Shown here: piece by piece, positions 6,997 to 37,469 of the stretch
Position numbering within the stretch: the first letter of the stretch is position 1
Layout of the letters: each line of letters starts with the position of its first letter
Origin: Oligoflexia bacterium
GTDB lineage: Bacteria > Bdellovibrionota > UBA1018
Direction of reading: 5' to 3'
Assembly (NCBI GenBank): GCA_023701205.1
Contig: JAMPXJ010000009.1
Coordinates: forward strand, 30,008-94,007
DNA length: 64,000 nt
Notes under the pieces: model-generated
What the model was told of the DNA's origin: nothing
Databases searched by the model: none
The model's input: the letters and a program-made list of their open reading frames with translations, nothing else
Position numbers and translations under genes: made by a program

Positions 6997-9900
6997 CTCC
7001 CGTCAACGACAAAGACGCCCACGGCTTCGCCGGAAGGCTCGCCCTGGCGTTCGTGAACTCCAAGCTCACCCTGGTCCTCGCGATCGCAAGCCTCCTGCTC
7101 GGCGTCGGCGCGGTCTGGCTCACGCCCAAGGAGGAGGAGCCGCAGATCAGCGTTCCGATAATCGACGTCATGACCCTGGACCCCGGCTCCGAGCCCGCCG
7201 AGATCGAACGACGGGTGACCGAGCCGATCGAGCGCGCTCTCTGGGGAATCGAGGGCGTCGAATACGTCTACTCGGCAAGCTCGCCGGGCGTGAGCCTGGT
7301 GACCGCGCGCTTCCGCGTGGGCGAGCCGATGGAGCCGAGCCTCATCAAGATCCACCACAAGCTCCTCGAGGCCCGCGCGCTCCTGCCCGCGTCCGCGCAG
7401 CCGCCGTCGGTCAAGTCTCATTCGATCGACGACGTTCCTTTCCTGACCCTGACCTTCAGCTCTCGAGACCGCGACGACCACTCGCTCAGGACCCTCGTCG
7501 CCCCGCTCGCGCGCGAGCTCTCGAGCACCCCGGACCTGAGCCGCGTGGAGCTTCTGGGCGGGCTCAGGCGCGCGATTCGCGTCATCGTCGATCCCGCGCG
7601 CCTTGCGGCCCGCGGCGTGGCGCTCCGGGAAGTCGCCGACGCGCTCCGGGCCAACGATGCCAAAGGGCCCGCCGGCAAGAACTGGAGCTCGGAGCAGGTA
7701 CTGGATATCGAGGTCGGTGCCCATCTCCGCTCGGCCGAGGACATCCGCGAGATCGCCATCGCGCAGAAGGGCGGGCGCCTCGTGCAGCTCCGGGATGTCG
7801 CCACCGTGGTCGACGGACCGGAGGAGCGCACGCGCGCCTCTATCCTGGTTTCGCATGGCTCGGTGGACTCGCCCGAGAGGGCGGTTTCGATCGCCTTCGC
7901 CAAGCGCAAGGGCACCAACGTGGTCCTGCTGGCGGATGAGCTGCTCAAGCACGCGCGCACCTTCGGCAAGAACCTCCCGGCCGACGTGCGCGTTTCCGTG
8001 CTGCGCAACTACGGCGACACCGCGGCCGAAAAAGCCAAGGAGCTCATCGAGCACCTGCTGCTGGCCACGCTCTCGGTTTCGGTGCTGATCGCGCTGGCGA
8101 TGGGCTGGCGCGCCTCACTCGTCGTGGCGATCGCGATCCCGGTGACGCTCGCGCTGACGATCGCGATCTACTACTTCCTGGGCTACACCTTGAACCGAGT
8201 GACGCTTTTCGCGCTCATTTTTTCGATCGGCATCCTGGTCGACGACGCGATCGTGGTGGTCGAGAACATCGAGCGCCACCTGCACCTGGACCGCCGCTCG
8301 GGCATCCTGCGCGCGACCCTGCGCGCGGTGAGCGAGGTGGGCAATCCCACGATTCTCGCGACCTTCACCGTGATCGCCGCCATCCTGCCCATGGCGTTCG
8401 TCCGCGGCCTCATGGGCCCGTACATGAAGCCCATTCCCGTGGGCGCAAGCCTGGCGATGGTGCTCTCGCTCTTCGTCGCGTTCATCGTGACCCCCTGGGC
8501 GGCCGTGCGGCTGCTGCGCGCGCCGGAGTCCACCGATCCCTCCGCCCCGGGCCACACGGAGAGTGGCCTGGACCGGATCTACCGGCGGATCACGGGGCGG
8601 CTGCTCGCGCGCAAGCGCCCGGCGCTGCTCTTCGGCGCCGGCACGCTCCTGCTGCTCCTGACCGCGACGTCGTTGCTGTATTTCAAGGCCGTGAAGGTGA
8701 AGATGCTTCCGTTCGACAACAAGGACGAGTTCCAGGTGCTCGTCGACTATCCGCCAACCACCCCGCTCGCGCGGAACGTGGAGTGGTCCACCGCGCTCGC
8801 GCGCGAGCTGGCCGCGGACCCGCGCGTGGAGCACGTCCAGGTTTTCGCGGGCGAGCCCGCCCCCTACTCGTTCTCGGGAATGGTCAAGCACACCTATCTC
8901 CGGCAGGCCGACCATCTGGCCGACCTCCAGGTCAAGCTGACTTCCAAAGAGCACCGTGACGAGGGCTCGCACGCGATCATCTCGGCGCTCCACGCCCGCA
9001 TCACGCGGTTTGGCGAGTCCCACGGCGCCATCACCAAGGTGCTTGAGATCCCGCCCGGCCCGCCGGTGCTGGCCACGATGGTCGCCGAAGTCTACGGACC
9101 GAACGAAGCGACGCGCATCGAAGTCGCCGGCCAGGTCCGGGACATCTTCGCGCGCGAGAAGAGCCTGGTCGACCTGGACACCTCGCTGCGGGAGGCTCGC
9201 CCGCGCCGGATCTATCCGTACGATCAGGCCCGTGGGGGGCAGCTAGGCACCAAGTCCGCGCGGGCACTTGAGGAGAGCCAGCTCCTTTTCGGCGAGGTGC
9301 CGGTCATCGGCCTCGCGGATGTCTCCGGGCCAGAGGATGTCAACGTGATGGCCTCGGTGAAGCAATCCTCCCGCTCCGGCGAGGAGCCCTTCCGCAACCT
9401 GAACGTCCCTTCGTTCGAAGCGGGTGTCGTTCCCCTCGAACGCGTCCTGCTGCCCGCGCGCACGGAAGCCACCCGGACGCTCCATCGCAAGAACCTCAAG
9501 CCCGTCTCCTACGTGACCGCCGAACTCTCGGGCGAGGAAGAAGCCCCGGTCTACGCGATCCTCAAGCTCGATCCCGCGCTCGCCAAAGCGGGCTACGCCA
9601 CGCAGACTGCCGAGGTCCCCTGGAACACCCAGGCTCCGGTCGTGAAGTGGGATGGCGAGTGGTTCATCACCTACGAGGTCTTCCGCGACCTGGGCGGCGC
9701 CTTCGCCGTGGTCCTGGTGCTCATCTACATCCTGGTGCTGGGCTGGTTTCGCAGCTACTCGGTCCCGCTCATCATCATGGCCCCGATCCCCATCAGCCTC
9801 ATCGGGATCATTCCCGGCCACGCGCTCTTTGGCGCCTACTTCACCGCCACGTCGATGATCGGCTTCATCGCGGGCGCCGGCATCATCGTGCGCAACTCGA

Positions 9901-10172
9901 TCATCCTCGTGGACTTCATCGAGCATCAGCTGCGCGAGGGCCTGCCCTTGAAGGAAGCCGTGATCTCAGCCGGGGTACTGCGCTTCCGCCCCATGCTGAT
10001 GACCGCCGCCGCAGTCGTGGTCGGCAGCTCCGTGATGCTCTTTGACCCGATCTTCCAGGGCCTCGCGCTGAGCCTGATCTTCGGTGAGATCGCGGCCACG
10101 CTCCTGAGCCGCATGGCCGTGCCGCTGCTTTACTTCTGGTTCATCGGGCGGAGCCGATTGCGGGCGATGTGA
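6993..10172 (+). CDS. RND-superfamily efflux transporter permease (AcrB/AcrD/AcrF-like)
   Basis: 1059-aa product starting MTPVNDKDAHGFAGRLALAFVNSKLTLVLA, with 12-TM RND architecture and large periplasmic loops. The ORF-track N-terminal extension (6612) is Arg/Pro-rich shadow sequence inside the TolC gene. Confidence 0.9.
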   Translation: MTPVNDKDAHGFAGRLALAFVNSKLTLVLAIASLLLGVGAVWLTPKEEEPQISVPIIDVMTLDPGSEPAEIERRVTEPIERALWGIEGVEYVYSASSPGVSLVTARFRVGEPMEPSLIKIHHKLLEARALLPASAQPPSVKSHSIDDVPFLTLTFSSRDRDDHSLRTLVAPLARELSSTPDLSRVELLGGLRRAIRVIVDPARLAARGVALREVADALRANDAKGPAGKNWSSEQVLDIEVGAHLRSAEDIREIAIAQKGGRLVQLRDVATVVDGPEERTRASILVSHGSVDSPERAVSIAFAKRKGTNVVLLADELLKHARTFGKNLPADVRVSVLRNYGDTAAEKAKELIEHLLLATLSVSVLIALAMGWRASLVVAIAIPVTLALTIAIYYFLGYTLNRVTLFALIFSIGILVDDAIVVVENIERHLHLDRRSGILRATLRAVSEVGNPTILATFTVIAAILPMAFVRGLMGPYMKPIPVGASLAMVLSLFVAFIVTPWAAVRLLRAPESTDPSAPGHTESGLDRIYRRITGRLLARKRPALLFGAGTLLLLLTATSLLYFKAVKVKMLPFDNKDEFQVLVDYPPTTPLARNVEWSTALARELAADPRVEHVQVFAGEPAPYSFSGMVKHTYLRQADHLADLQVKLTSKEHRDEGSHAIISALHARITRFGESHGAITKVLEIPPGPPVLATMVAEVYGPNEATRIEVAGQVRDIFAREKSLVDLDTSLREARPRRIYPYDQARGGQLGTKSARALEESQLLFGEVPVIGLADVSGPEDVNVMASVKQSSRSGEEPFRNLNVPSFEAGVVPLERVLLPARTEATRTLHRKNLKPVSYVTAELSGEEEAPVYAILKLDPALAKAGYATQTAEVPWNTQAPVVKWDGEWFITYEVFRDLGGAFAVVLVLIYILVLGWFRSYSVPLIIMAPIPISLIGIIPGHALFGAYFTATSMIGFIAGAGIIVRNSIILVDFIEHQLREGLPLKEAVISAGVLRFRPMLMTAAAVVVGSSVMLFDPIFQGLALSLIFGEIAATLLSRMAVPLLYFWFIGRSRLRAM

Positions 10173-10402
10173 GGGTGGAACAACACCGCGTTGATACACA
10201 CACGGGGAGAGTCTTGGCGCTCGCCGAACAGATTTTCCGGATCGGATTCGATAAAATTGAGGTCGATCGGCAATTCGTGACGGTTTACAAGGAGACTCAC
10301 ACCATTTCCGAAGAAGCTGTCGCGCCGCTCGCATCCCTGATTGCCCAGGTCCTGCCGCTGTTGCTCCAGATCCAAAAACACGCTCCGCCGGCGGAGTCGT
10401 AG
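10169..10402 (+). CDS. Hypothetical 77-aa protein, possibly translationally coupled to the RND gene
   Basis: GTG overlaps the RND stop (GTGA at 10169-10172). Third-position G+C looks coding-like. No recognisable domain and not hydrophobic. Confidence 0.3.
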   Translation: MRVEQHRVDTHTGRVLALAEQIFRIGFDKIEVDRQFVTVYKETHTISEEAVAPLASLIAQVLPLLLQIQKHAPPAES

Positions 10403-27074: not shown

Positions 27075-27149
27075 GCGAGTGTAGCTCAGCGGGAGAGCAC
27101 GCCCTTCACACGGGCGGGGTCACAGGTTCAATCCCTGTCACTCGCACCA
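27075..27149 (+). tRNA. tRNA-Val (anticodon CAC), CCA encoded
   Basis: Hand-folded cloverleaf: acceptor GCGAGTG/CACTCGC, D arm GCTC-AGCGGGA-GAGC, anticodon arm CGCCC-TTCACAC-GGGCG, variable GGGTC, T arm ACAGG-TTCAATC-CCTGT, then A-CCA. Confidence 0.9.
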
Positions 27150-27445
27150 TTTCAAAAATCCAACCCAACCAGAAAATAACGTTACACCCACAAACGAGAC
27201 CCCTCCCTACCCGAGGCGGAAAACTCGTTTGAAATGGTGCGCCTTGAGCGAAGCGCCGCAGGCGCGGAGCGGAAGATAAAACAGTCCAGCGGACTGTTTT
27301 GTACCTTATGACAGGGATAGCGGAGGCCAGGATGGCCGAAGCGGTGAAAGGCGGAAGACGCGGGGAGCCCGCTTGCGGGCCGCGTCTGAGCCCGGGCTGC
27401 AGCCCGAGCACGGCAGTGCGAGGAGCGGAAGCCAATCCCTGTCAC
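27129..27445. repeat. Cluster of tRNA-end repeats: 13-nt direct repeat of the T-arm and 14-nt inverted repeat of the acceptor end plus trailer
   Basis: CAATCCCTGTCAC occurs at 27129-27141 and 27433-27445. CGCACCATTTCAAA at 27143-27156 has its reverse complement TTTGAAATGGTGCG at 27228-27241. TGACAGGGAT (27308-27317) pairs with ATCCCTGTCA (27435-27444). Confidence 0.6.
27277..27299. terminator. Intrinsic-terminator-like hairpin (A-tract / stem-loop / T-tract, potentially bidirectional)
   Basis: AAAACAGTCC-AGC-GGACTGTTTT is a perfect 10-bp stem including the A/T tracts. Confidence 0.45.
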
Positions 27446-27601
27446 GGCATCCTGGGAAAGGGAGAGATTTTGAAATCAATTCGGCCGCGAACCGAGACAG
27501 TTCAGCCCTGCAGCAGCCGGATATTATTAGTTAGTTCTATTGCAGAACGAAAATAGGAGCCAATCGTTCTACGGGAGAACGAAATCTTAACTCGTTGTTA
27601 T

Positions 27602-28675
27602 TCAAGCCGCGCCGTCACAAAGATCGGCGGCAACCTCTACACCACGAGCTCGAAACTGCACGCTCAGGTCCTTGCACCAAGCTGTAGACACTAAACTCGC
27701 CTGCCTCAATACCTCGGAGGCTAAATCCGAATAGCCAGAGAATTCCGGCAGCCCGGCAATTGCCTTGAGATAAACCATTTCAACCAGTCCAAACCCTAGA
27801 GAAACAGCCGAGCCCCAAAGAGGCTGATTAACCGCCGCCGAGGCCAAGTACGGATCAGGCAGTTCCATTGCCTCAGGCATCAGTGGATTCGCAAGCCATC
27901 CCTGCAGAAGCGCGACCGTAGCCGGATAGTGTTTCGAGTAAATGCTCGATTTCACCTTTCGTTCGAACTGGTACCGCAACGTAGGGGCATCCTCGACGAG
28001 GTTAACGTACCGGTTCACGTCAATTGAAGCGTCGAACCAGTCATATTTGCCGATCAGCGGCTCTCCCAGGTAAAGAGCGGCAAGCAAATTGGCCGTCCCC
28101 TCTAGGACACCGCTCTGCCCGGCTAACTTCCGCCAGTCCTTCGGCGGGTACTCAATGAGTTCCGAAACACTCTTTTTGAGAAGATGCAAATGCAAGGCAT
28201 GCCCGATCTCATGCGCAATTATAGTTGGATCAAGTGCAGGCTGCGCAAAACTAAGGGCAACCTCCGCTGAACTCATAGTCCCACCGCCCGGCTCACCTTG
28301 CGAGTCACCTTTTGCGAGATGAATCACCACCCCGCGGAGCTCGGGCTGCCCCAAACCCTTCAAAATTGAGTTGTAATGTCGAACCTGGGCCGTCGCATAA
28401 TAATAGGTATGCACCCAGGCCATCCGATCGTCCTGGGTCGGAAAACAGAAACAGCCACTCTCGTCAGGAGTAAATTCGGTCGGGATGTTAACTATGGAAA
28501 CGGCCTCGTTCCTCAAGACACCACCTTGGAATTCCGGAAGCCTGACCTTGGTCGTTGTCGCCCCCTCAGTTTTCCACACACCGATCATGCCCATTGGGCT
28601 ATCGAGTGCCATGATCTCTTGGGTGCTCAAGACCAAACTGCATACGAAAAGCGCAAAAGCTCGTACAAAGCTCAT
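27602..28675 (-). CDS. Secreted HExxH zinc-metalloprotease-like protein (gluzincin-like)
   Basis: Signal peptide. IIAHEIGHALHLH is followed by GVLEGTANLLA, a candidate third-ligand Glu. G+C looks lower than in the flanks. Confidence 0.6.
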   Translation of the reverse strand: MSFVRAFALFVCSLVLSTQEIMALDSPMGMIGVWKTEGATTTKVRLPEFQGGVLRNEAVSIVNIPTEFTPDESGCFCFPTQDDRMAWVHTYYYATAQVRHYNSILKGLGQPELRGVVIHLAKGDSQGEPGGGTMSSAEVALSFAQPALDPTIIAHEIGHALHLHLLKKSVSELIEYPPKDWRKLAGQSGVLEGTANLLAALYLGEPLIGKYDWFDASIDVNRYVNLVEDAPTLRYQFERKVKSSIYSKHYPATVALLQGWLANPLMPEAMELPDPYLASAAVNQPLWGSAVSLGFGLVEMVYLKAIAGLPEFSGYSDLASEVLRQASLVSTAWCKDLSVQFRARGVEVAADLCDGAA

Positions 28676-28916
28676 GGAGAGGATTCCTAACAGAAGGGAA
28701 ACCGTTCAACAATCCAATCAGCTCCCCCGAAATATTTTGAACTCAAATCTAAAAACTGCTACCTCCCGCCCAAGTTCAAAGGAGGTCCGCCATGAAAAAC
28801 ATCTCCATCGGTTCCGACGCGGCCTTCCTGTCTTTCGCGGGCTGAGGCAGCGCGGAATCCTCCAAAATTCGCCGATATTCCATACCTGAGACCAGATCAT
28901 CTGGGTCGCGCAGCCC

Positions 28917-29303
28917 GTGGATCGGCATTACCCAGGAAACCAAATGAATCTCGTACCTCATGAGGGCGGCGTTTCCGCCTTCGTCCATGAAGAGCTCGCT
29001 GGAAAACTGACCGGGAAACTTGTGCAGCCGAAGCTCTATCTCGTACTGAGAATGGAGATCCCTGCGGGTGACCCGCGACAAATCGGAAACCGACTGCTCG
29101 ATTGGATCTCTTGCACGCACCCAGCCTGTGAAATCTTGCCGCTCAGCTGGGCCAATCCCGACGATGCCGCTTATGCCCGGATCCTGCAAGGCTTGGGCTA
29201 CTCAGTCCACGAGGAGAGGGCCTATTTCTCCCGATCGCTCACGGATTGGAGATCGCCCTATTCAGATCCGTTTCAGCCGCAGGCAGTTTATCCACCTGCT
29301 TGA
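28917..29303 (+). CDS. Hypothetical protein, possibly a remnant of a decayed gene (weak GNAT-like C-terminal resemblance)
   Basis: GTG-start ORF with moderate third-position G+C. LLDWISCTHPACEILPLSWANPDDAAYARILQGLGYSV is only vaguely GNAT-like. Competing ORFs lie on the opposite strand and in other frames. Confidence 0.25.
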   Translation: MDRHYPGNQMNLVPHEGGVSAFVHEELAGKLTGKLVQPKLYLVLRMEIPAGDPRQIGNRLLDWISCTHPACEILPLSWANPDDAAYARILQGLGYSVHEERAYFSRSLTDWRSPYSDPFQPQAVYPPA

Positions 29304-29472
29304 GGAGCTACGGGTGGGTGATCCCGACAGCCCGCCCGAGCAATCTCTGGAGGAGTGTTTTGCCTACATCCTCGCGCAATGGCCGGACTATGTCATTCGT
29401 GACGATCTCGAGTTCCCTGCCCCTCGCCAGATCCCACTTTGGGTCATGGGCCTGAGATGACAATTCGAAGAT

Positions 29473-30011
29473 TCATCGCCGCTCAGTCGGCCTCAACCTC
29501 CGAATGCGTATCCAAAGAAGCGCCTTCGGCAGGCCATTGATATTCAGCGCGGCCATGCATTCGTCCAGTCGTCCCGGCCTCTCGCCGAGGCGCTGGACGG
29601 CGCGGCCGAGATCGCGCTCGATGCTCTCACCGTAGGCGGCGGCGGCTTTCGCGATCGCGCGGGTCAGCAACGGGCGCGAAGGCTCGAGCATCGCAAGATC
29701 GATGAGATCCCGGCTGAAGACTGAATCGTCCGACCAGCGATCCGAGTTCGCGAGAAGCTTGATTGCGGCCATATCGAGCGCGGCCAGCGTCACGACCCCG
29801 CAAATACGATCTTTCGGTCCTGGTCTTTCCAGCTCGATCCTGGCCTCCAGGACGATCTCAAACTTGATTTGGGTTTTCGCCACCTGCAGCATCGTGCGAA
29901 TCCCATACTGGTCGGAGCGCAGCTCGCCCGCTGCGCTCAGCTCCGCGCCGTCTCAGCATCGAGCGCCTGAAGGATCGTGGCGATTCGGACGTGGTGGTCT
30001 CGACTAAACAA
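29473..30011 (-). pseudogene. Possible frameshifted AbiEii/DUF1814-like nucleotidyltransferase toxin remnant downstream of the XRE gene
   Basis: The intact 139-aa ORF (29473-29892) carries AAIKLLANSDRWSDDSVFSRDLIDLAML, like the K...A...R...RDlyDl segment of AbiEii. Upstream coding-like sequence (LFSRDHHVRIATILQALDAETA from TTG 30011) lies in another frame and ends at the TGA at 29937-29939, suggesting a frameshift. Confidence 0.35.
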
Positions 30012-30489
30012 GGAGTCGCTCCCGCCCAAACGCCGCGAGGAGCGCCTCCAGGAATTCCCTTTCCCGGGAATCCATTTTCTTGAGCTCCACGTGTCGCCAG
30101 TTGCGTTCGTAAATCTTCAGCGCTTCTTCGGGACTGATTACGGTCGTTTTCTTGAGCTGCCAGGCCAGCCGCCTCAGCTGCGGATAATCGGCCAGGCGGA
30201 TTTCTGGTGGAACTGCGGCGGCCCGTGCGCCCCGCTTGCGCTTGCGGCCGCGCGGATCCACGAGCTCCAGTTCCAACCCCAGCGCGAAGATCACGCTTAC
30301 GTAGGCGCCGCCCGTCACCGATGGCTCACCCCGCTCGATTCGGTGGAGCGTGACCCGTGACATTCCGGCGGCCTCCGCGGTTGCGACCGCGCTGATGCCA
30401 AGCTGCTTCCGCCGGGCGCGCAGCCGCTCGCCCAGTTCACGAAGCCGATTTTCGATCACGGTACCGATGTGAGGAGCTGCGGCCGGCAT
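30004..30489 (-). CDS. XRE-family helix-turn-helix regulator (antitoxin-like, with C-terminal extension)
   Basis: LGERLRARRKQLGISAVATAEAAGMSRVTLHRIERGE is a canonical Cro/C1 HTH. An AT-rich upstream region with short inverted repeats lies at 30502-30537. Confidence 0.8.
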   Translation of the reverse strand: MPAAAPHIGTVIENRLRELGERLRARRKQLGISAVATAEAAGMSRVTLHRIERGEPSVTGGAYVSVIFALGLELELVDPRGRKRKRGARAAAVPPEIRLADYPQLRRLAWQLKKTTVISPEEALKIYERNWRHVELKKMDSREREFLEALLAAFGRERLLV

Positions 30490-30568
30490 ATGTATCCCAT
30501 TATAGACTATATCTCTATTTTGTCTAGTATGAGATACACTTTCGTCTTGACTCTAGCCCACCGCGCGG

Positions 30569-31477
30569 TCACTGATTGCCGCAAGAGCGAAGCTCGGCGG
30601 CCAGGAGCGGCAGCACGCGTTCATCGATCAATCGACGATGGACTTGCTCCGCATCCGAGACCAGCTGCCTCGGGAGCGGCTGGCCCCGCTCTTCGTAGGA
30701 ACTGCCCCCGTACTTGAAGCTGGACATCTGCGAGCTGACCTCACTGAGGCGATCCGTCAGGCAGGCTGAAACCTGGCAGGGCTCACCGCGCGCACGGCGA
30801 CGGGGACTCCGTTGGGCCGCGCCGCTCAGGGGGCAACTGTCCCGGGACGCCCGGATCAGCCCATTCAACGCCTTCGCATAGTAGCTGAACCAACGGACAT
30901 CGCGCCGAAGCTCATGCATCCCCAGCTCCGCCTTCGTGAGGTCATAGGTCTTGCCATGATACTCCTCGAGTTCCTCGGCAATGCGCCGAACCACGAAGTC
31001 CAGATCGCCCTCCGCATCGGGCCACCGGGTGCTGATCAGATCCTGCCGAAGCTCTTCCATCCGCGAAGGGGTCGCGAGAATGAGCCTCTCCTCGATGAGA
31101 AAGGCCTTGAACTCCTCATTCAGCTTCTGTGCCTCCGGGCCTCCATGACCTCGATCCAGGGTGTGGGAGATATAGTCCTCGAACCCTTTGATGAGCTTCT
31201 TGTACTTCTTGAACCTCTTCTCATCGATGTCCTTGTAAATCCTCAGCAACGACTCCAGCGTGAAGAGCGGGCCTCGCAGCTGCATGGCCACTTGCACGCC
31301 ATGCTCCTTGTTGCGGACCTCCTTCAGGGCCGCCGAAACACGGTCAACGGAAGGGAGAAACAGGTCGAGGGGAGTCAGGGGCTCGGCTCGCCCACCCTGG
31401 GTGGCGAAAACCAGGGACCCGCCGAGCACCGCGCCGGAAATCACGAACGTCGACAAAAACAACTTCAACTTCTTCAT
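30569..31477 (-). CDS. Exported helical protein, paralogue 1 (CHAD-like His/Arg motifs)
   Basis: Signal peptide. Motifs LRGPLFTLESLLRIY, LIKGFEDY and MHELRRDVRWFSYYAKALNGLI. Four conserved C-terminal Cys. Clearly alignable with the adjacent 327-aa protein. Confidence 0.6.
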   Translation of the reverse strand: MKKLKLFLSTFVISGAVLGGSLVFATQGGRAEPLTPLDLFLPSVDRVSAALKEVRNKEHGVQVAMQLRGPLFTLESLLRIYKDIDEKRFKKYKKLIKGFEDYISHTLDRGHGGPEAQKLNEEFKAFLIEERLILATPSRMEELRQDLISTRWPDAEGDLDFVVRRIAEELEEYHGKTYDLTKAELGMHELRRDVRWFSYYAKALNGLIRASRDSCPLSGAAQRSPRRRARGEPCQVSACLTDRLSEVSSQMSSFKYGGSSYEERGQPLPRQLVSDAEQVHRRLIDERVLPLLAAELRSCGNQ

Positions 31478-31498
31478 AATATTCCACTCGCTTCCGGA

Positions 31499-32482
31499 TT
31501 ATCTCACGCAGCTTTGAAGGCTCTCGACCAGAGCCGGGAGAAGGTTCGTATCTCGCATCTCTTTGTAAAGCCGATGCGCTTCGGCGTAGAGCTGACGATC
31601 GCCGTGACCACCATCGATCGCCTCGCCGCCCTGGCCTTCGTCCTTGATATTGCCCAGGTCACTCACGAGCTTCGCGACGCCATTGTACACGCAGGCGGGA
31701 ATGGCGCAGGGACTTGGCTCATTGCCGGTGGCGAGGGGCGCGCCGTACTTGCCTTCGATGCGAGCGCTGCCGCGCGGACCCCGCAGCGTGCAACTCATCG
31801 CATCGGAGACCTGGATCAGGCCTCCCAGCGCCTTCACCTCGTAGGGAAACCAGCGGAGCTCCTTTCGAAGGTCATGGATGCCTCTTTCCAGCTGATTCAT
31901 GTCCCAGGCGGTGTCGTTGATCTTCTGGAAGTCCCTCGCGATCTCATTCAGAACCATCGCGCGGTCCTCCTCGTAGCTCATCCAGCGCGCGTCCTGCAGA
32001 TCGCGCTTGAGGCGCTCGATGGCCGGCAGGCCAGGCGTCAGCCATTCGCGAGACGAGAGAAAACCGCTGAATCGGTGACTCGCCTCCCGCTGTCTCCTCC
32101 TGAGCTCTTCGAGCTTCGCCGGACTCGCACCCCGCTGGTGGGCGAAATCGATCATCTCCCTGCTGTAGGCGTAAGCGCCGACGGCATCTTCGAATTCCTT
32201 GATCAGCCGGCGATTCCTCTCGAACTCATTCCCGTAGTGCCGACTATAGATATTGAAGAGCACTTCGAGCCTGAAAAGCTGGCTCCGAATATCGGATGCC
32301 GTAAGGCGGTCCGGCGCCGATGCCGGATCATCCTGGGACCGAAGGGTCGCCTCCACCCTTCGAAGCGGCTCCAGAAACCTTTCAGCGGGACTCGGCAGCG
32401 GAGCTGCCTGGCCCGGCATCAGCTGCGCTGCGATCGCTCCCACTACACAAAAAAATCCACCCGTAATGACTCCGCGTCTCAT
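31499..32482 (-). CDS. Exported helical protein, paralogue 2 (CHAD-like His/Arg motifs)
   Basis: N-terminal hydrophobic segment. Motifs IRSQLFRLEVLFNIY, LIKEFEDA and IHDLRKELRWFPYEVKALGGLI. The C-terminal Cys pattern is conserved with paralogue 1. Confidence 0.6.
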   Translation of the reverse strand: MRRGVITGGFFCVVGAIAAQLMPGQAAPLPSPAERFLEPLRRVEATLRSQDDPASAPDRLTASDIRSQLFRLEVLFNIYSRHYGNEFERNRRLIKEFEDAVGAYAYSREMIDFAHQRGASPAKLEELRRRQREASHRFSGFLSSREWLTPGLPAIERLKRDLQDARWMSYEEDRAMVLNEIARDFQKINDTAWDMNQLERGIHDLRKELRWFPYEVKALGGLIQVSDAMSCTLRGPRGSARIEGKYGAPLATGNEPSPCAIPACVYNGVAKLVSDLGNIKDEGQGGEAIDGGHGDRQLYAEAHRLYKEMRDTNLLPALVESLQSCVR

Positions 32483-32706
32483 AAGACCTAGTGTGAACGT
32501 GACACACTAAATAGTCAACTCTTTTTGTCTGGTATTTTGTCGAGTATTATTGAAGAACTTATTCTTTTTATTTCAAGTATTTAGCTTCCGAAAAGAGGGT
32601 GTTCCCCTCGGTTCGGCGCAACCGGGCTGCCTTAGATTTAACAACTGGGCCACTGATTCCGAAGAGAATCCGAGGTGCTCGTCGCAACGAAACTCACAAG
32701 GAATCC

Positions 32707-35064
32707 ATGATCAGCCTATTGCTCCTGTCGCTTTCGATCGCTCATGCTTCCGCGCAAGCGGCCGGTCCCATCCAGGGCACCGACTGCCCCTATTTCTACC
32801 GCTTGATCGCTCCCATCGTCGAAAACGGCAACACCACCACGCTCCGGCAGGAAAAGAAGTGGGTGGTCACCCAAGGCGAGCTCGACAAGTTCATGAGCTC
32901 CCTGCGCACCGACTTCGGGGAGGTCCCCCTGCGCGACACCCCTGCGCCCGGCACGGTGAATGTCACGATCACTGACTATGCTCGGGATGTCGTCCTGGGA
33001 AGAAACGCCGACGGGAAAAAGCTTTCCGCGAAGATCCGCGTACGCCGCTACGGCAGTCGGCCGGAAAATGGCTCGCCCGACGACATCACCATCGGCGAGC
33101 AATACCGAACCCGTTCCAAGGTCGAGTTCAAGATCCAGCACCCCGAGCACGATGGCGTGGTCTTCAAGCCCGGCATCGTCATGGAAAACGCCGACATCGA
33201 CCTTCTCCTGGGCGGAAAGGACTCGTTCTACGCGAACATCGCCGAAGTCCGGAAGCGCACCCAGGCCCTCGCCAAACCCGACGGCCAGGGAGGCACGAAG
33301 CTCGTCAACGCGGACTCCCGGGAAGTCGATGAGATGTTCGATGCGATGCGCTCGCTGTACGACGACATGTCCCGGCCCGGAAGCCTCGGAGAATTTCCCG
33401 AAGGCCTGAACCGCATCCACCGGGTCCGTTACGAGCGCGACGCCTACCAGCTCGACGTACCGGACCTGCTCAGCGGCAAGAAAATCAAGGTGCAGATCAC
33501 CGTGGACAGAAACGTCAACTTCTTTCATCCCGCGGCTCCCGACGAGGCCATCAGCTCTTACCCTGCCGACTGGCGGGTCATCGAGGTCAAGATTCCGCTG
33601 CAATACTCCATTATGAGCGACGAGCAGCTGGGCAAGGCGGCTCCGAAACTGCTCGAGCTCCGCCGGCACACCCAGGCCCTCAAGCAGGTTGCCGACATGC
33701 CGGAGGGCAAGGGCAAAGCCGGAGGCTCGAAGCTGATCATCCGCGACAAGCTCGAGCGCGAAGGAATCGCCCTGAACGAGGACGATGTCGCCGATATGTT
33801 CAGGAACGCCGAGGGATACCTTCCGCCAGGCACCCTTGGCGAGATCAAGCACACGCTCAAGCTGACGCTCATGGAAAAGCCCGTCAGCGACTACTTCCCG
33901 ACGCACGGCCAGGAGCTCCGACGCATCCGCGACACCGTGATCAACAGACCGATCCCGACAAAAGAGGGGCTGGCTGCGCTCCGGGACGACATCAATACGC
34001 TGGTCGACCTGCACTTCAACGAGCTCTCGCGGATGAAACAGCGGGGAGTCCTGTCGGAAGACGGAAAGAAGTACTTCGAGCTCCTGAAGGCCTTCAAGAC
34101 CTTCAACCGGAAGTACCAGAACAGCTGGCTCACCCACGTCATCCAGGAACATTACTCCGCCTTCATCTCCGCCAAGCCCGGAAACTACACGGTGGACGAC
34201 CTGTATCGCTCCATCATCGATCAATTCGTCTTCGAGCAAGGCGCACTTATCAAGACCGATATCGCCTTGAAGGAGAGGCTCCGAAAGTGGATTGAGCCCC
34301 GCGAGTGGGCGAAGCGCCGCCGGGCGGTAACGGATTTCGCCCGGGAGCGAGCCGCGAAAACCTATATGAGCCACCTGGTGGCGATCCCACTGAATATCGG
34401 CGGACTGATGGGGTACGCCGCTCTGTGTGCCCACATGGAGTGGAAATGTCCGATCGTCAACCAAACCCCCAATCCCGAAAAACGCAGCCAGGCGAGGGAA
34501 TCCTGGAAAGAGAGCCGGGAGAAGATCACGACCCTGCATGCCGAGCTCCAAGCCATGCAGGGCCGCCTGAAAGACGACCTCCCCGCCGGTGACGACGCGG
34601 CGGAACGATGGAGGTCCACCGCTCCGAAGATCCGGGAGCTCGGCCTGCGGTATCAACAGGCCATGGACCCGGTGATCCTGAAGGATCAGCATCTGGCCGA
34701 CGAGATGAAGCTCGAGGTCTCGAACGCCCAGCGGATCTTCCAGGTCGCCAAGACCAACCTGCAGGAAGCCAAGAGAGCTCACGCCGAAGCCCTGAAGGCA
34801 AAGAAGCCCCGGAATGCCGAACTGGAACGCAGGGCCGAAGCGGTCGCGGCGCGCGAGGAAGAGTACGCTATCGCCCTCGCCGGGCTTGCGGCCATGGACA
34901 TCTTTCTTCCCAAATTCAGGGGCCTCGAGGAAATTTCCGAGAAGGATTTCGCCCCCCTTTCGAATTTCACCTCGTTCAACAGGCACTTCACCGACTCGTT
35001 GCAATCCGTCACGACCAATGTCGGACGCTTCATCAATCAGGCTGACAAGGAGCTATGGAAATGA
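32707..35064 (+). CDS. Exported VTC/CYTH-like (triphosphate tunnel metalloenzyme) domain protein with a long helical C-terminal region
   Basis: ATG at 32707 gives signal peptide MISLLLLSLSIAHASA. Tunnel-strand-like motifs QEKKWVV, VNVTITDYARD, KIRVRRYG, SKVEFKIQ, RVRYERDAYQLD, KVQITVDRNVNFF and WRVIEVKIP. The C-terminal roughly 450 aa are helical with one hydrophobic segment (VAIPLNIGGLMGYAALCA) and a coiled-coil tail. Confidence 0.6.
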   Translation: MISLLLLSLSIAHASAQAAGPIQGTDCPYFYRLIAPIVENGNTTTLRQEKKWVVTQGELDKFMSSLRTDFGEVPLRDTPAPGTVNVTITDYARDVVLGRNADGKKLSAKIRVRRYGSRPENGSPDDITIGEQYRTRSKVEFKIQHPEHDGVVFKPGIVMENADIDLLLGGKDSFYANIAEVRKRTQALAKPDGQGGTKLVNADSREVDEMFDAMRSLYDDMSRPGSLGEFPEGLNRIHRVRYERDAYQLDVPDLLSGKKIKVQITVDRNVNFFHPAAPDEAISSYPADWRVIEVKIPLQYSIMSDEQLGKAAPKLLELRRHTQALKQVADMPEGKGKAGGSKLIIRDKLEREGIALNEDDVADMFRNAEGYLPPGTLGEIKHTLKLTLMEKPVSDYFPTHGQELRRIRDTVINRPIPTKEGLAALRDDINTLVDLHFNELSRMKQRGVLSEDGKKYFELLKAFKTFNRKYQNSWLTHVIQEHYSAFISAKPGNYTVDDLYRSIIDQFVFEQGALIKTDIALKERLRKWIEPREWAKRRRAVTDFARERAAKTYMSHLVAIPLNIGGLMGYAALCAHMEWKCPIVNQTPNPEKRSQARESWKESREKITTLHAELQAMQGRLKDDLPAGDDAAERWRSTAPKIRELGLRYQQAMDPVILKDQHLADEMKLEVSNAQRIFQVAKTNLQEAKRAHAEALKAKKPRNAELERRAEAVAAREEEYAIALAGLAAMDIFLPKFRGLEEISEKDFAPLSNFTSFNRHFTDSLQSVTTNVGRFINQADKELWK

Positions 35065-36218
35065 ACCACTGGCTATTCACTGTTTCAATGCTTCTTCCTG
35101 CTCTCGCGATGTCCACTTTCGCGGATGACAACTGGAATCCGGAGACCGGCCCGGCGGACGTCGCCGCGTTGACGAAGAGTCTCGAGGAGGTCAAAAAAGG
35201 GATGAACGAGCTCAAGCCCGTCAAGCCCGACTGCGACTCGCAAAGCGACAACACGCCACCCTCGAAGGTCCCTCTCTTCCAATCCGATGAGATTCTCAAG
35301 GTCGAGATGCGAGGCATCTTCCCGATTCGTGATACCATCCAGCCGCGACCCGGAAAAATCATCGTCGGACATAACGGCCAGGAGCATACGACCTCTGCCG
35401 ATTTCGTCGGTCGCGGCCAATATCGAAGGAGCTTGTGCTCTGAATTCCCGCCTTTCAAGATCATCCTGCCCGCAAGTGATCAAAAAGGATCGCTCTTCAA
35501 AGGCGGAGACCGGGACCTCAAGTTCGTTACCCATTGCGGCAGTAAACCCGAGAATGCCGAGCGGGTCCGGGAGGAATACACCATTTACAAAGTGCTCTCG
35601 GCTGCCGGCCTCCTGAGCCTCAAAGTCAGGCTGGCCGAGGTCACCTACACCAATTCGCAGGGAACCCAGACCGCGACAGGACCTGGATTTTTCATCGAGA
35701 ATCTCAAGGATGCCGCCAAGCGCTGGGAGGGCAGAGAACCCAAGGCGCTTTCCGCTGAGCAAGATGGAAACTACTTCGGCGGCGTCGCTCGAGTGAGCGA
35801 GCTGATCGCTACGAACAATGACTTTAGCGTCGAAGCCGAACACAACACCAGGATCGTCCGGGATGCCAAGGGAAATCGCCGCTATGCCATCCCTTATGAC
35901 TTTGATCTCACGGATCTGATCGTGGGCAAGAACTACGGGAAAAACACCTGGGATTCCCAGGACGTTGAGAAGAAAATCCGCAACCTGCTGCTCGAAAACG
36001 GCTCGGCAAGCGCCCGCGAGGCGCTCGAGACCGCTACCCGTAATCGCAAATCCGTTCACAGAGCCATCGACGAAAGCCCGATCTCCGAGGCGAACAAGCG
36101 GAAATTCCACGGCCGAATGGACTTCTTCTTCGATGCCGCCGAAGCGGTGCTCCAGGGTGCCCCTCCTCAAGTGAGAGTCGTTCCTGATGAGCTGCGTGGG
36201 ACAGCCAAGTTCCAATGA
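35061..36218 (+). CDS. Exported CotH-like atypical kinase-fold protein
   Basis: AAGGAG 8 nt upstream of ATG 35061; overlaps the VTC gene end. Signal peptide. CotH-like segments FVGRGQYRRSLCSEFPPFKIIL, EEYTIYKVLSAAGLLSLKVRLAEVTYTN, GFFIENL and AEHNTRIVRDAKGNRRYAIPYDFDLTD. Confidence 0.5.
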   Translation: MNHWLFTVSMLLPALAMSTFADDNWNPETGPADVAALTKSLEEVKKGMNELKPVKPDCDSQSDNTPPSKVPLFQSDEILKVEMRGIFPIRDTIQPRPGKIIVGHNGQEHTTSADFVGRGQYRRSLCSEFPPFKIILPASDQKGSLFKGGDRDLKFVTHCGSKPENAERVREEYTIYKVLSAAGLLSLKVRLAEVTYTNSQGTQTATGPGFFIENLKDAAKRWEGREPKALSAEQDGNYFGGVARVSELIATNNDFSVEAEHNTRIVRDAKGNRRYAIPYDFDLTDLIVGKNYGKNTWDSQDVEKKIRNLLLENGSASAREALETATRNRKSVHRAIDESPISEANKRKFHGRMDFFFDAAEAVLQGAPPQVRVVPDELRGTAKFQ

Positions 36219-36229
36219 CGGAGGGCATT

Positions 36230-37429
36230 ATGAAAAGGAAGAGCGCTACCTTGAAGGCCCTGTTTCTTGGGCTGCTGTGGATCGCCGCACCCGCATGGGC
36301 GGAAGCCCCGGCCAGCATCACCGCGGAGCCCCCCGTCGTGGCGGTCGGCGATATCCACGGAGATTTGAGCGCACTCGTCACCATCCTTGGCGGCCAAGGG
36401 CTGATCGATGCCGAGGGCAACTGGAAAGGGGGTTCCAGCCAGTTGGTATTCGTGGGGGATCTCAACGATCGCGGGCCTGATACCCGCTACATCATGGACT
36501 ATGTGATGGATCTGGAAAAGCAGGCCCAGGCCGCCGGAGGCAAGATCCAAACCCTTCTGGGCAATCATGAGGTGATGGTCGCGAGCGGAGATGTGCGCTA
36601 TGTGGCTCCCGAAGAGCTCAAGCCCTTCGAGGGCTTCCAGCCCATGGGCGTGACTTCCGTGGCCCTGAAAAGAATGAGGCAAGCGCATCGCAATAGCATC
36701 GCGAACAACGAAATCGCCGCGAAGGTTTCGATGCACGAGGAAAAGTGCCTGGAAATGCGTCGAAAGGGCCTTGCCGATTGCGAGCCTTTGCGGAAATCGG
36801 AGCTAGAACCCAGGGTCATTCCCGACGAGGAGATCAAGCCTTACGCGGGAATCGGCGCCGCGATGATCGGCAACTCGCCTTATGCCAAGTGGCTGCGCGG
36901 GCGCCAGGCGATCACGAAAGTGGGAGATACGCTCTTCGTGCACGCGGGTATCAGCGAGGACTTCCTGAAAACCAATGCGAATGAGCTCAACAAAATGGTC
37001 GCGAACTGGGTGAAATACCACCAAGGCGTGGGACCGCGACCCAAGAAGCACACGAGCTGGGTCCTGGAGGAGCAGGGTCCGCTCTGGGATCGTCAGCTGG
37101 CCATGGGAAAACTTCCCGAAGAAACACTCGACGCAGTACTGAAGGCTTACGGAGCCAAACGCCTCGTGATCGGCCATACGGTCCAGACAAGAGGGATCAT
37201 GCTCCGCTATGATGGAAAGGTGATCCTGATCGATACGGGCAATTCCGCTGTCTATAACGGCCCCCTCTCCGCGCTGGAGATCCGGGGAGAACAGCTGAGA
37301 GGCAAGTACTTCCCGCGCCCGGATGGGCCTGCGGCGCTGAGAGACCAGCTGATCGCGCGCTACAACCTGGAAAAGACAATGACTCCGGCCTTGAAGTCCG
37401 TCCCACAGCTGAGTCCGCCTTGTCGATGA
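36230..37429 (+). CDS. Exported PPP-family metallophosphoesterase (Ser/Thr-phosphatase-like)
   Basis: GGAGGG upstream of ATG 36230 (an alternative ATG at 36215 overlaps the previous stop as ATGA). Signal peptide ending AWA. GDIHGD, GDLNDRG and GNHE motifs. Confidence 0.8.
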   Translation: MKRKSATLKALFLGLLWIAAPAWAEAPASITAEPPVVAVGDIHGDLSALVTILGGQGLIDAEGNWKGGSSQLVFVGDLNDRGPDTRYIMDYVMDLEKQAQAAGGKIQTLLGNHEVMVASGDVRYVAPEELKPFEGFQPMGVTSVALKRMRQAHRNSIANNEIAAKVSMHEEKCLEMRRKGLADCEPLRKSELEPRVIPDEEIKPYAGIGAAMIGNSPYAKWLRGRQAITKVGDTLFVHAGISEDFLKTNANELNKMVANWVKYHQGVGPRPKKHTSWVLEEQGPLWDRQLAMGKLPEETLDAVLKAYGAKRLVIGHTVQTRGIMLRYDGKVILIDTGNSAVYNGPLSALEIRGEQLRGKYFPRPDGPAALRDQLIARYNLEKTMTPALKSVPQLSPPCR

Positions 37430-37456
37430 CTCGGCGGCCCGAAAGAGCGCCGGCGG

Positions 37457-37469
37457 CCCCCCCCCCCCC
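37457..37469. repeat. Homopolymeric C13 tract (G13 on minus strand) between convergent gene ends
   Basis: 13 consecutive C read directly, abutting the pepN stop codon (TAG, reverse complement of 37469-37471). Confidence 0.9.

Follow-up and report, generated by a model that had tools for sequence, protein, structure and literature searches.

To our knowledge, all characterised tunnel metalloenzymes (RNA triphosphatases, CyaB cyclases, thiamine/tripolyphosphatases and Vtc4) work where nucleoside triphosphates (NTPs) are made, and yeast Vtc4 acts on the cytoplasmic face, with ATP. An earlier note on the DNA analysed here described bacterial VTC proteins as short and cytoplasmic, and this description holds for the canonical forms that we recovered: of 151 Bdellovibrionota genomes sampled, 20 contained frames of 212-301 amino acids (aa) that matched the Pfam VTC family with 58-179 bits, and the genome under study encodes its own VTC protein of 271 aa (111 bits) that has no signal sequence. 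Here we report on a different type of VTC-like protein, encoded in a stretch of 64,000 nucleotides (nt) (hereafter the window; contig JAMPXJ010000009.1, positions 30,008 to 94,007, of assembly GCA_023701205.1, an Oligoflexia bacterium). The source is a groundwater metagenome-assembled genome (MAG) that probably belongs to the Bdellovibrionia, and the gene in question (the target) occupies window positions 32707-35064 on the forward strand as an uninterrupted frame of 785 codons. Its 785-aa product has four parts, namely a Sec-type signal peptide, a triphosphate tunnel metalloenzyme (TTM) domain, a helical middle domain, and a hydrophobic segment with a C-x6-C pair that leads into a helical-bundle tail (Table 1). 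No exported TTM or VTC protein was found described in the literature. Our preferred, though tentative, interpretation is that the target is an exported VTC-type enzyme that cleaves polyphosphate, tripolyphosphate or released NTPs in a metal-dependent manner outside the cytoplasm of the producer.

The assignment of the N-terminal domain to the VTC group comes mainly from its modelled structure. A Pfam search with the whole protein gave no match and NCBIfam gave nothing for the target; when only the N-terminal 364 aa were searched, the Pfam VTC model (PF09359) matched residues 47-328 with an E-value of 0.007 and 16.4 bits, under the gathering cut-off of 23 bits. The same model reached E ≤0.01 in 20 of 95 relatives (best 5e-9), and Vtc4 was the best match (E 0.0035) when a profile of the family was compared with the sequences of the PDB. 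An AlphaFold2 (AF2) model of the domain, built from 95 family sequences, had a mean predicted local distance difference test score (pLDDT) of 90.8, a predicted template modelling score (pTM) of 0.87 and eight long strands (residues 46-55, 83-92, 105-119, 136-144, 151-160, 236-252, 259-274 and 289-297). With this model, Foldseek ranked the polymerase domain of Vtc4 (3g3q) first, at E 6.8e-7; other VTC chains came next, and then YgiF and more TTMs. Similarly, ranks 1-8 in VIA-align were VTC entries only (Z 12.0-14.6, 224-242 residues aligned, root-mean-square deviation 3.7-4.5), with Z of 14.6 for the VTC complex (7ytj_E), 14.2 for Vtc4 (3g3r) and 14.0 for Vtc2, while archaeal, plant, human and bacterial TTMs scored 9.4-11.5 over 160-197 aligned residues; the 64 PDB chains at Z ≥8 comprised TTMs and the structurally related Mediator Med18/20 fold. 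As modelled, the N-terminal domain is an eight-stranded tunnel nearer to VTC than to other TTMs, though below the Pfam VTC threshold.

The residues of this tunnel are strongly conserved. R113, E140, K142 and K154 are invariant in the 95 sequences (23-42% identity to the target), and T44, R47, E49, R76, D77, T87, T89, Y91, R111, Y115, Y242, R244, Q263, T265, D267, E293, K295, P297, G336 and K337 are at least 90% conserved; K51 is also listed in the conserved set. The strand motifs R-x-E-x-K, R-x-R-x-Y, E-x-K, Y-x-R, Q-x-T-x-D and E-x-K are likewise invariant or at least 90% conserved, and, judging from alternating positions on the modelled strands, the conserved basic and acidic residues would face inward. 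R47, E49, R111, R113, Y115, E140, K142, K154, Y242, R244, E293 and K295 are common to the target and the canonical VTC protein of the same genome. The roles of the tunnel residues of Vtc4 were reportedly set out in the 2009 Vtc4 structure paper. Alignment to 3g3q by a profile hidden Markov model (HMM) places K142, K154, Y242 and R244 of the target opposite K281, K294, Y359 and R361 of Vtc4 (numbered with an offset of 185 derived from the printed 3g3q alignment). Inactive Vtc4 carries the substitutions R264A/R266A/E426N (PMC9911596), and strand order suggests that R111, R113 and E293 are the counterparts of these three residues, all of which the target retains. The acidic residues that are kept argue for metal catalysis over mere anion binding, and the tunnel looks, by this prediction, catalytically competent.

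Export of the target depends on the choice of start codon. The frame is also open from an upstream in-frame GTG at 32599, which is abutted by AGAGG and would add 36 residues, mostly charged and not Tat-like, in front of the hydrophobic core. A Shine-Dalgarno (SD)-like AAGGA lies 4-5 nt upstream of the ATG at 32707, a normal spacing, and the homologues begin with short n-regions that resemble the N-terminus read from this ATG; we prefer ATG 32707 because of both the SD spacing and this homologue-like N-terminus. From there the signal peptide has an uncharged core of 10 residues, with A-S-A at -3/-1 in front of QA, so that the n-h-c pattern with small residues at -3/-1 that marks Sec export and cleavage by signal peptidase I is present in the target, and it is kept among the relatives. 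Judged by eye and with a hydrophobicity rule, a signal-peptide-like core is present in 81 of the 84 family members for which the N-terminus is complete and the N-terminal domain is present, and the stand-alone relatives of ~350 aa have no hydrophobic segment besides this head. In 77 of the 81, a Cys lies between the hydrophobic core and strand beta1, and in most mature proteins of the family it is the sole Cys. The main propositions of the earlier note on the N-terminal part, a VTC/TTM domain behind a cleavable-looking signal peptide, have stood up: neither of the two outcomes that it named as refuting, a true start elsewhere that removes the signal peptide and an N-terminal region that is not predicted to fold as an eight-stranded tunnel, was obtained, and the conserved Glu/Lys/Arg residues that it had asked to see in the tunnel are there.

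A word-indexed homologue search with the whole protein returned only the target itself. Exhaustive phmmer added 98 representatives that matched at E ≤1e-3, and for 67 of these the E-value was ≤1e-10. Most are proteins of 340-400 aa that cover only residues ~40-340 of the target; the ten relatives looked up were single-member clusters, and the six that were named were each called "hypothetical protein". A species-wide motif scan gave 14 loci, whose titles all read Bdellovibrionales, Bdellovibrionia, Bdellovibrio, Pseudobdellovibrio or Pseudobdellovibrionaceae, and a scan of metagenome contigs gave 3 loci. L007, one of the 14, agrees with L003 both in hit statistics and in the ORFs around it, and the genome of L003 is of the same family as that of the window, which points to the Bdellovibrionia as the probable group of the window. 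So far, the exported family appears confined to Bdellovibrionota, a phylum with many bacterial predators, and its distribution there is patchy, since the family profile matched 14 of 301 sampled genomes and 10 of 170 genera. The Pfam VTC scan of the 151 genomes does not recover this exported clade. When 93 exported and 22 canonical domains were placed in a quick maximum-likelihood tree, one branch of ~2.4 changes per site divided the two groups, with a Shimodaira-Hasegawa-like approximate likelihood ratio (SH-aLRT) support of 100; because membership of each group was set by the search that had recovered it, this division speaks for a lack of intermediates in the sample and not for an origin. 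The target grouped with P0005 and P0006 (support 99), beside P0007, P0009 and P0003, in a subclade of proteins with a C-terminal tail. A different arrangement is found in P0012, P0084 and P0030, where the tunnel domain lies C-terminal to signal-peptide-bearing regions with Gly/Ala-rich hydrophobic stretches. Long stretches of this kind, with the look of glycine zippers, precede the tunnel domain of P0012 (L002:184-2397) and also occur in P0103 (L006:7710-9773), the product of the gene just downstream of a tunnel gene; they may be a membrane-inserting module.

The C-terminal half of the target is a less common feature of the family. A model of residues 362-785 (AlphaFold, 12 sequences, pLDDT 77.7) was helical with the exception of a single beta-hairpin, in line with the long helical region announced by the earlier note, whose quoted sequence strings are all present. 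The note's coiled-coil tail fared less well, as the Ala/Glu/Lys-rich tail exists and was modelled as a five-helix bundle rather than one extended coiled coil, and its hydrophobic segment is present but doubtful as a membrane span. Residues 513-586, which contain this segment, had pLDDT <50. The segment is 19 aa long with P, N and G inside (13-15 aa in the short-tail forms P0007 and P0009), and it is flanked by six K/R on its N-terminal side and three on its C-terminal side; the more basic flank is the N-terminal one, the side of the exported tunnel, in 11 of 12 long forms. The C-x6-C pair is found in six full-type sequences (P0001, P0005, P0006, P0011 as C-x7-C, P0013 and P0018). We doubt a simple type I anchor because of the marginal segment, its basic tunnel-side flank and the Cys pair that follows, and the whole protein may be extracytoplasmic, with a hydrophobic element that is monotopic or inserts later.

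Relatives with a C-terminal half fall into several forms. P0005, P0006 and P0011 can be aligned to the target from end to end, and among the family sequences the middle domain is restricted to the target, these three, P0013 and P0018. P0007, P0009, P0014 and P0003 are without the middle part and retain the basic helix, a short hydrophobic stretch and a helical tail. P0013 (413 aa, C-terminal half only) was considered as a free-standing protein and, with a Leu start on a 1.7-kb contig, was treated as a fragment. The suggestion that the C-terminal half might be a CHAD domain was not borne out: Pfam gave no CHAD match at E ≤1 for residues 332-785 and none at E ≤0.01 in full-length relatives, a PDB sequence search with this half found no match, and CHAD was absent among its fold matches, in searches that barely covered the middle domain. 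The best Foldseek match was the MUN domain of Munc13 (E 0.083), rows to alpha-pore-forming toxins were not significant (E 0.45-1.9), and VIA-align, in both a wide and a second-look search, returned only generic helical bundles at Z ≤7.6.

Table 1. Parts of the target protein and neighbouring genes, with coordinates in the window (AF2, AlphaFold2; SD, Shine-Dalgarno; PPP, phosphoprotein phosphatase).
Feature	Position	Strand	Basis or remark
Sec-type signal peptide, residues 1-16, MISLLLLSLSIAHASA, predicted cut between ASA and QA	32707..32754	+	Sequence, SD, family conservation
Cys27, lone family-conserved Cys just past the signal peptide	32785..32787	+	77 family members
Predicted VTC-like triphosphate tunnel (TTM) domain, residues ~40-345	32824..33741	+	AF2, VIA-align, Pfam VTC, conserved residues
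Middle domain, residues ~375-511, helices and one beta-hairpin	33829..34239	+	AF2 pLDDT mostly 80-96
Hydrophobic segment LVAIPLNIGGLMGYAALCA, residues 557-575, after basic helix RRRAVTDFARERAAKTYMSH	34375..34431	+	Kyte-Doolittle 1.71
C-x6-C pair, Cys574 and Cys581, at or just past the end of the hydrophobic segment	34426..34449	+	Conserved
C-terminal helical bundle, residues ~590-784	34474..35058	+	Five long helices, pLDDT ~77-94
Downstream gene 1, predicted exported 387-aa protein, weakly CotH-like	35055..36218	+	Start overlaps the target stop by 10 nt
Downstream gene 2, predicted exported 404-aa Shewanella-type PPP metallophosphatase	36215..37429	+	4-nt overlap with gene 1
Upstream tandem of predicted exported paralogues, 302 and 327 aa, divergent from the target	30569..32482	-	Four conserved Cys

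The target heads an operon of three overlapping genes, and both downstream products have N-terminal leaders; a scan for promoters and terminators found nothing exceeding shuffled controls. Among the data sets listed as containing the target gene there was no RNA set, and the only one that contained it in full, a groundwater metagenome, may be its source. The 387-aa protein has no match in Pfam or among PDB sequences and belongs to a family of 11, with nine further relatives that lack Pfam domains and one member from a Bacteroidetes MAG. The family has the invariant motifs N-x-D, H-N and Y-D-F-D, a CotH match at E ≤0.021 was obtained for 2 of its 11 members, and hhalign paired its HN...PYDFD with the NN...PWDWD of the genome's own CotH protein (E 0.042 over 24 columns; E range 0.042-0.28, one motif). 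The sequence likeness of the 387-aa protein to CotH is suggestive only. The 404-aa protein is identified more clearly, with a Pfam Metallophos match of 5e-10, GDxHG, GDxxDRG and GNHE motifs, and, as nearest relative, the cold-active protein-tyrosine phosphatase of Shewanella (PDB 1V73/2Z72, E 7e-34); NCBIfam gave only weak matches of the ApaH/PrpE type.

Upstream, the divergent 302- and 327-aa paralogues share the helix motif G-[IM]-H-x-L-R-[KR]-x-x-R-W-x-x-Y. Their link to CHAD is a match, under the cut-off, of one homologue from locus L006 only (E 0.0063), and a PDB profile search and a CHAD search in their own genome were empty, as was a search for a further copy in the genome; a CHAD-like reading of these sequences is unproven. 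At L006, the closest species-representative locus, both the 387-aa family and the paralogue family occur within 6 kb of the tunnel gene. In the window, the target, its operon neighbours and the divergent paralogues lie in a segment of ~10.3 kb (27157-37463) between tRNA-Val (27075-27149) and pepN, with a G+C content of 0.57-0.61 vs 0.64-0.69. Nothing corresponds to this segment in a genome of the same genus (G001): there, homology breaks off at the tRNA and is picked up again at pepN, in a separate contig. The segment is an accessory island, in which no integrase was recognised. At its edge, a gene at 27602-28675 on the reverse strand encodes an exported 357-aa protein with a HEIGHALH zinc-protease motif that has only weak M48/M3 matches.

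At other loci the tunnel gene has different companions. In 10 of 27 loci it is translationally coupled to an upstream partner of ~390-460 aa, in which a signal peptide is combined with a C-x-x-L-F head whose Cys is invariant (partner genes occur in L009-L019 and L035, e.g., L011:4779-5939). This partner family, A8, has no detectable relation to the C-terminal half of the target or to the 387-aa protein, and no copy of it was found in the genome of the window. At three loci, an exported DUF2252/APH-like protein of kinase fold is encoded between the partner and tunnel genes (L009:4921-5988, L010:4895-5983 and L035:7127-8317), with a D-F-H-x-N-N motif resembling a catalytic loop, its own leader and a Cys. 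Tunnel proteins and upstream partners alike begin with a signal peptide, 2-12 residues and one conserved Cys, often as C-x-x-[LIV]-F, and this Cys is as a rule the sole one of the mature protein. The shared Cys head may serve for an intermolecular disulfide or as a sorting tag. In the genome of the window, four more predicted exported proteins start with a signal peptide, two to four residues and C-[AP/R]-[RE]-L-[FY] (C6:72909-74384, C20:56073-57677 and C24:863-1903, all on the reverse strand, and C33:9844-10308 on the forward strand), the third of which has a HEIGH zinc-protease motif. These heads are a lead only, because chance alone should produce so loose a pattern several times in each genome.

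The following sequence of events would account for these features. After export, the tunnel domain would reside in the periplasm or be released, with the basic helix and hydrophobic segment holding the protein at a membrane and the helical bundle acting as a stalk or interaction module. The tunnel would cleave the phosphoanhydride bonds of tripolyphosphate, polyphosphate or NTPs freed from other cells, and this cleavage would feed phosphate scavenging, with the neighbouring phosphatase acting downstream. We consider cleavage the most likely activity because the extracytoplasmic space of the producer has no ATP supply and hydrolysis needs no energy supply; in addition, TTM hydrolases of tripolyphosphate are known, and three of them (YgiF, 5a60; AtTTM3; the Sulfolobus TTM) are among the structural matches. 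The overlap of the target, the exported 387-aa protein and the exported PPP phosphatase in one operon supports both export and phosphate chemistry. Several points weigh against this interpretation. The nearest structures belong to a polymerase family and not to hydrolases, and sequence does not separate hydrolysis from polymerisation. In the HMM alignment to 3g3q, the position of Vtc4 R373 is taken by Gln263 in the target and by Gln in at least 90% of the family. The phosphatase neighbour is more like a protein phosphatase than a polyphosphatase, and anchoring by the hydrophobic segment is doubtful, as the segment looks marginal and its basic tunnel-side flank ill-suited to a simple N-out/C-in anchor. 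Finally, no biochemistry of any bacterial VTC protein was found in the literature, and an extracytoplasmic polyphosphate pool would have to be assumed for the source organism.

The structural proximity to a polymerase family raises the possibility, which we regard as unlikely, that the protein is a polymerase directed at prey or competitors, whose hydrophobic and helical parts would insert into or cross the membrane of another cell so that the victim's ATP is turned into polyphosphate, draining energy and locking phosphate in a non-diffusible store. The target retains every polymerase residue except one, the family is limited to a predator-rich phylum, the gene lies in a variable island, and the Gly/Ala-rich, signal-peptide-bearing regions of P0012, P0084 and P0030 fit such a role. 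Against these observations, most family members are plain secreted proteins of 350 aa without a hydrophobic segment, neither translocation machinery nor a known delivery domain was identified, predation by the source organism would have to be assumed, and the likeness of the tail to alpha-pore-forming toxins, which would also agree with delivery, is at noise level. The Gln at the R373 position also bears on a tunnel without catalysis. The tunnels of Vtc2 and Vtc3 are inactive in yeast, and their chains match the target as well as Vtc4 does (Z 14.0-14.6), so that the target, with its long helical tail of structural appearance, might be a non-catalytic binder tethered at the envelope that clamps polyphosphate, triphosphate or another polyanion. 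Such a role is improbable in our view, since conservation reaches at least 90% over ~95 diverged sequences at the acidic metal-binding positions E49, E140, E293 and D267 and at the terminal G-K.

The gene neighbours bear on another possibility, to which we assign a slim chance, namely that the protein supplies phosphoryl donors, either by reversal of the Vtc4 reaction (polyphosphate and ADP to ATP) or by handing phosphate from exported polyphosphate to co-exported atypical kinases. Kinase-like neighbours recur (the 387-aa family at the target and L006, the DUF2252/APH-like proteins at L009, L010 and L035), the phosphatase in the operon is of protein-phosphatase type, CotH, phosphodiesterase, DUF4956 and VTC genes form a canonical cluster elsewhere in the genome, and an association of VTC with DUF4956 and CotH has been published (PMC2879425; 10.1101/768473). 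However, kinase-like neighbours were found in only 5 of 27 loci, the hhalign match on which the CotH assignment of the 387-aa protein turns is not significant, and reversal of the Vtc4 reaction was not found documented in the literature. Moreover, we know of no CotH-fold kinase that uses polyphosphate. It is very improbable that the target is not exported at all, in which case the hydrophobic head would result from a miscalled start or would stay uncleaved and anchor a cytoplasmic VTC protein with extra domains. The alternative GTG would permit this, and the basic flank of the second hydrophobic segment suits a tunnel on the cytoplasmic side; yet 81 of 84 relatives, soluble 350-aa forms among them, have signal-peptide-like heads with A-x-A sites, and a head of this kind is missing from the genome's canonical VTC protein. 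Moreover, the SD points to the ATG, the charged upstream extension is not Tat-like, and leaders are present on both operon neighbours.

The existence of ~100 exported, apparently catalytic VTC-like proteins would mean that phosphoanhydride substrates are handled outside the cytoplasm or that these proteins act inside other cells. It also bears on the open question of the role of bacterial VTC proteins and their CotH and DUF4956 partners, and it indicates that a whole clade of the VTC domain escapes the present models of Pfam and NCBIfam. A broader scheme, which we put forward with little confidence, is that Bdellovibrionota have a phosphate-energy system that is extracytoplasmic or directed at prey, and that a VTC-type polyphosphate enzyme was moved out of the cytoplasm to take part in it. 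In such a system, the victim's ATP would be converted to polyphosphate after delivery, or exported polyphosphate would be the phosphoryl currency on which the PPP phosphatase and atypical kinases exported alongside it (CotH-like, DUF2252-like) draw, and the head formed by a signal peptide and Cys-x-x-Leu-Phe would mark components for a common fate.

Of the known systems, yeast Vtc4 (3G3Q/3G3R, 7YTJ, 8I6V) is the closest in structure, as it has the same eight-stranded tunnel with a helical insertion, and the counterparts of its R264, R266, K281, K294, Y359, R361, E426 and terminal Lys are kept in the target. Nevertheless, the two are only ~13-17% identical, the target has a signal peptide where Vtc4 has an N-terminal SPX domain, and it differs from Vtc4 in having Gln at R373, an added N-terminal helix that starts from the conserved Cys, and no Vtc1-type membrane domain or partner. 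The TTM hydrolases (E. coli YgiF, 5A60; AtTTM3, 5A5Y; Sulfolobus TTM, 7NS9) share the tunnel fold at Z 9.7-11.5 and perform the chemistry proposed for the target, metal-dependent cleavage of triphosphate. Unlike the target, they are cytoplasmic and have smaller tunnels (~170-210 aa), and YgiF has in addition a CHAD domain, for which the target gave no match. The first strand of TTM hydrolases has the motif E-x-E-x-K, whereas that of the target family reads R-x-E-x-K. The likeness to the Shewanella cold-active phosphatase (Shelph PPP; 1V73, 2Z72) concerns the 404-aa neighbour and not the tunnel protein.

The canonical bacterial VTC proteins (PF09359) differ from the target in their size and lack of a signal, whereas the target has a signal peptide, 440 extra residues and no DUF4956 neighbour. 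Genes of the canonical type usually lie beside DUF4956 and CotH, as in NELoc-2 of C. perfringens (PMC2879425), and the VTC-DUF4956-CotH association recurs in Gram-positive Pel loci (10.1101/768473). In the genome studied here, the canonical cluster is separate from the target, on contig C29 at ~7000-10400 (L005, L022), and consists of a CotH lipoprotein (101.7 bits), a lipoprotein of the type I phosphodiesterase/nucleotide pyrophosphatase family, a DUF4956-like membrane protein (a weak match, E 0.016) and the signal-less VTC protein. This cluster parallels the exported trio in the window. What the target and the canonical bacterial VTC proteins have in common is the domain superfamily, the tunnel residues and an association with kinase-like and phosphoesterase genes.

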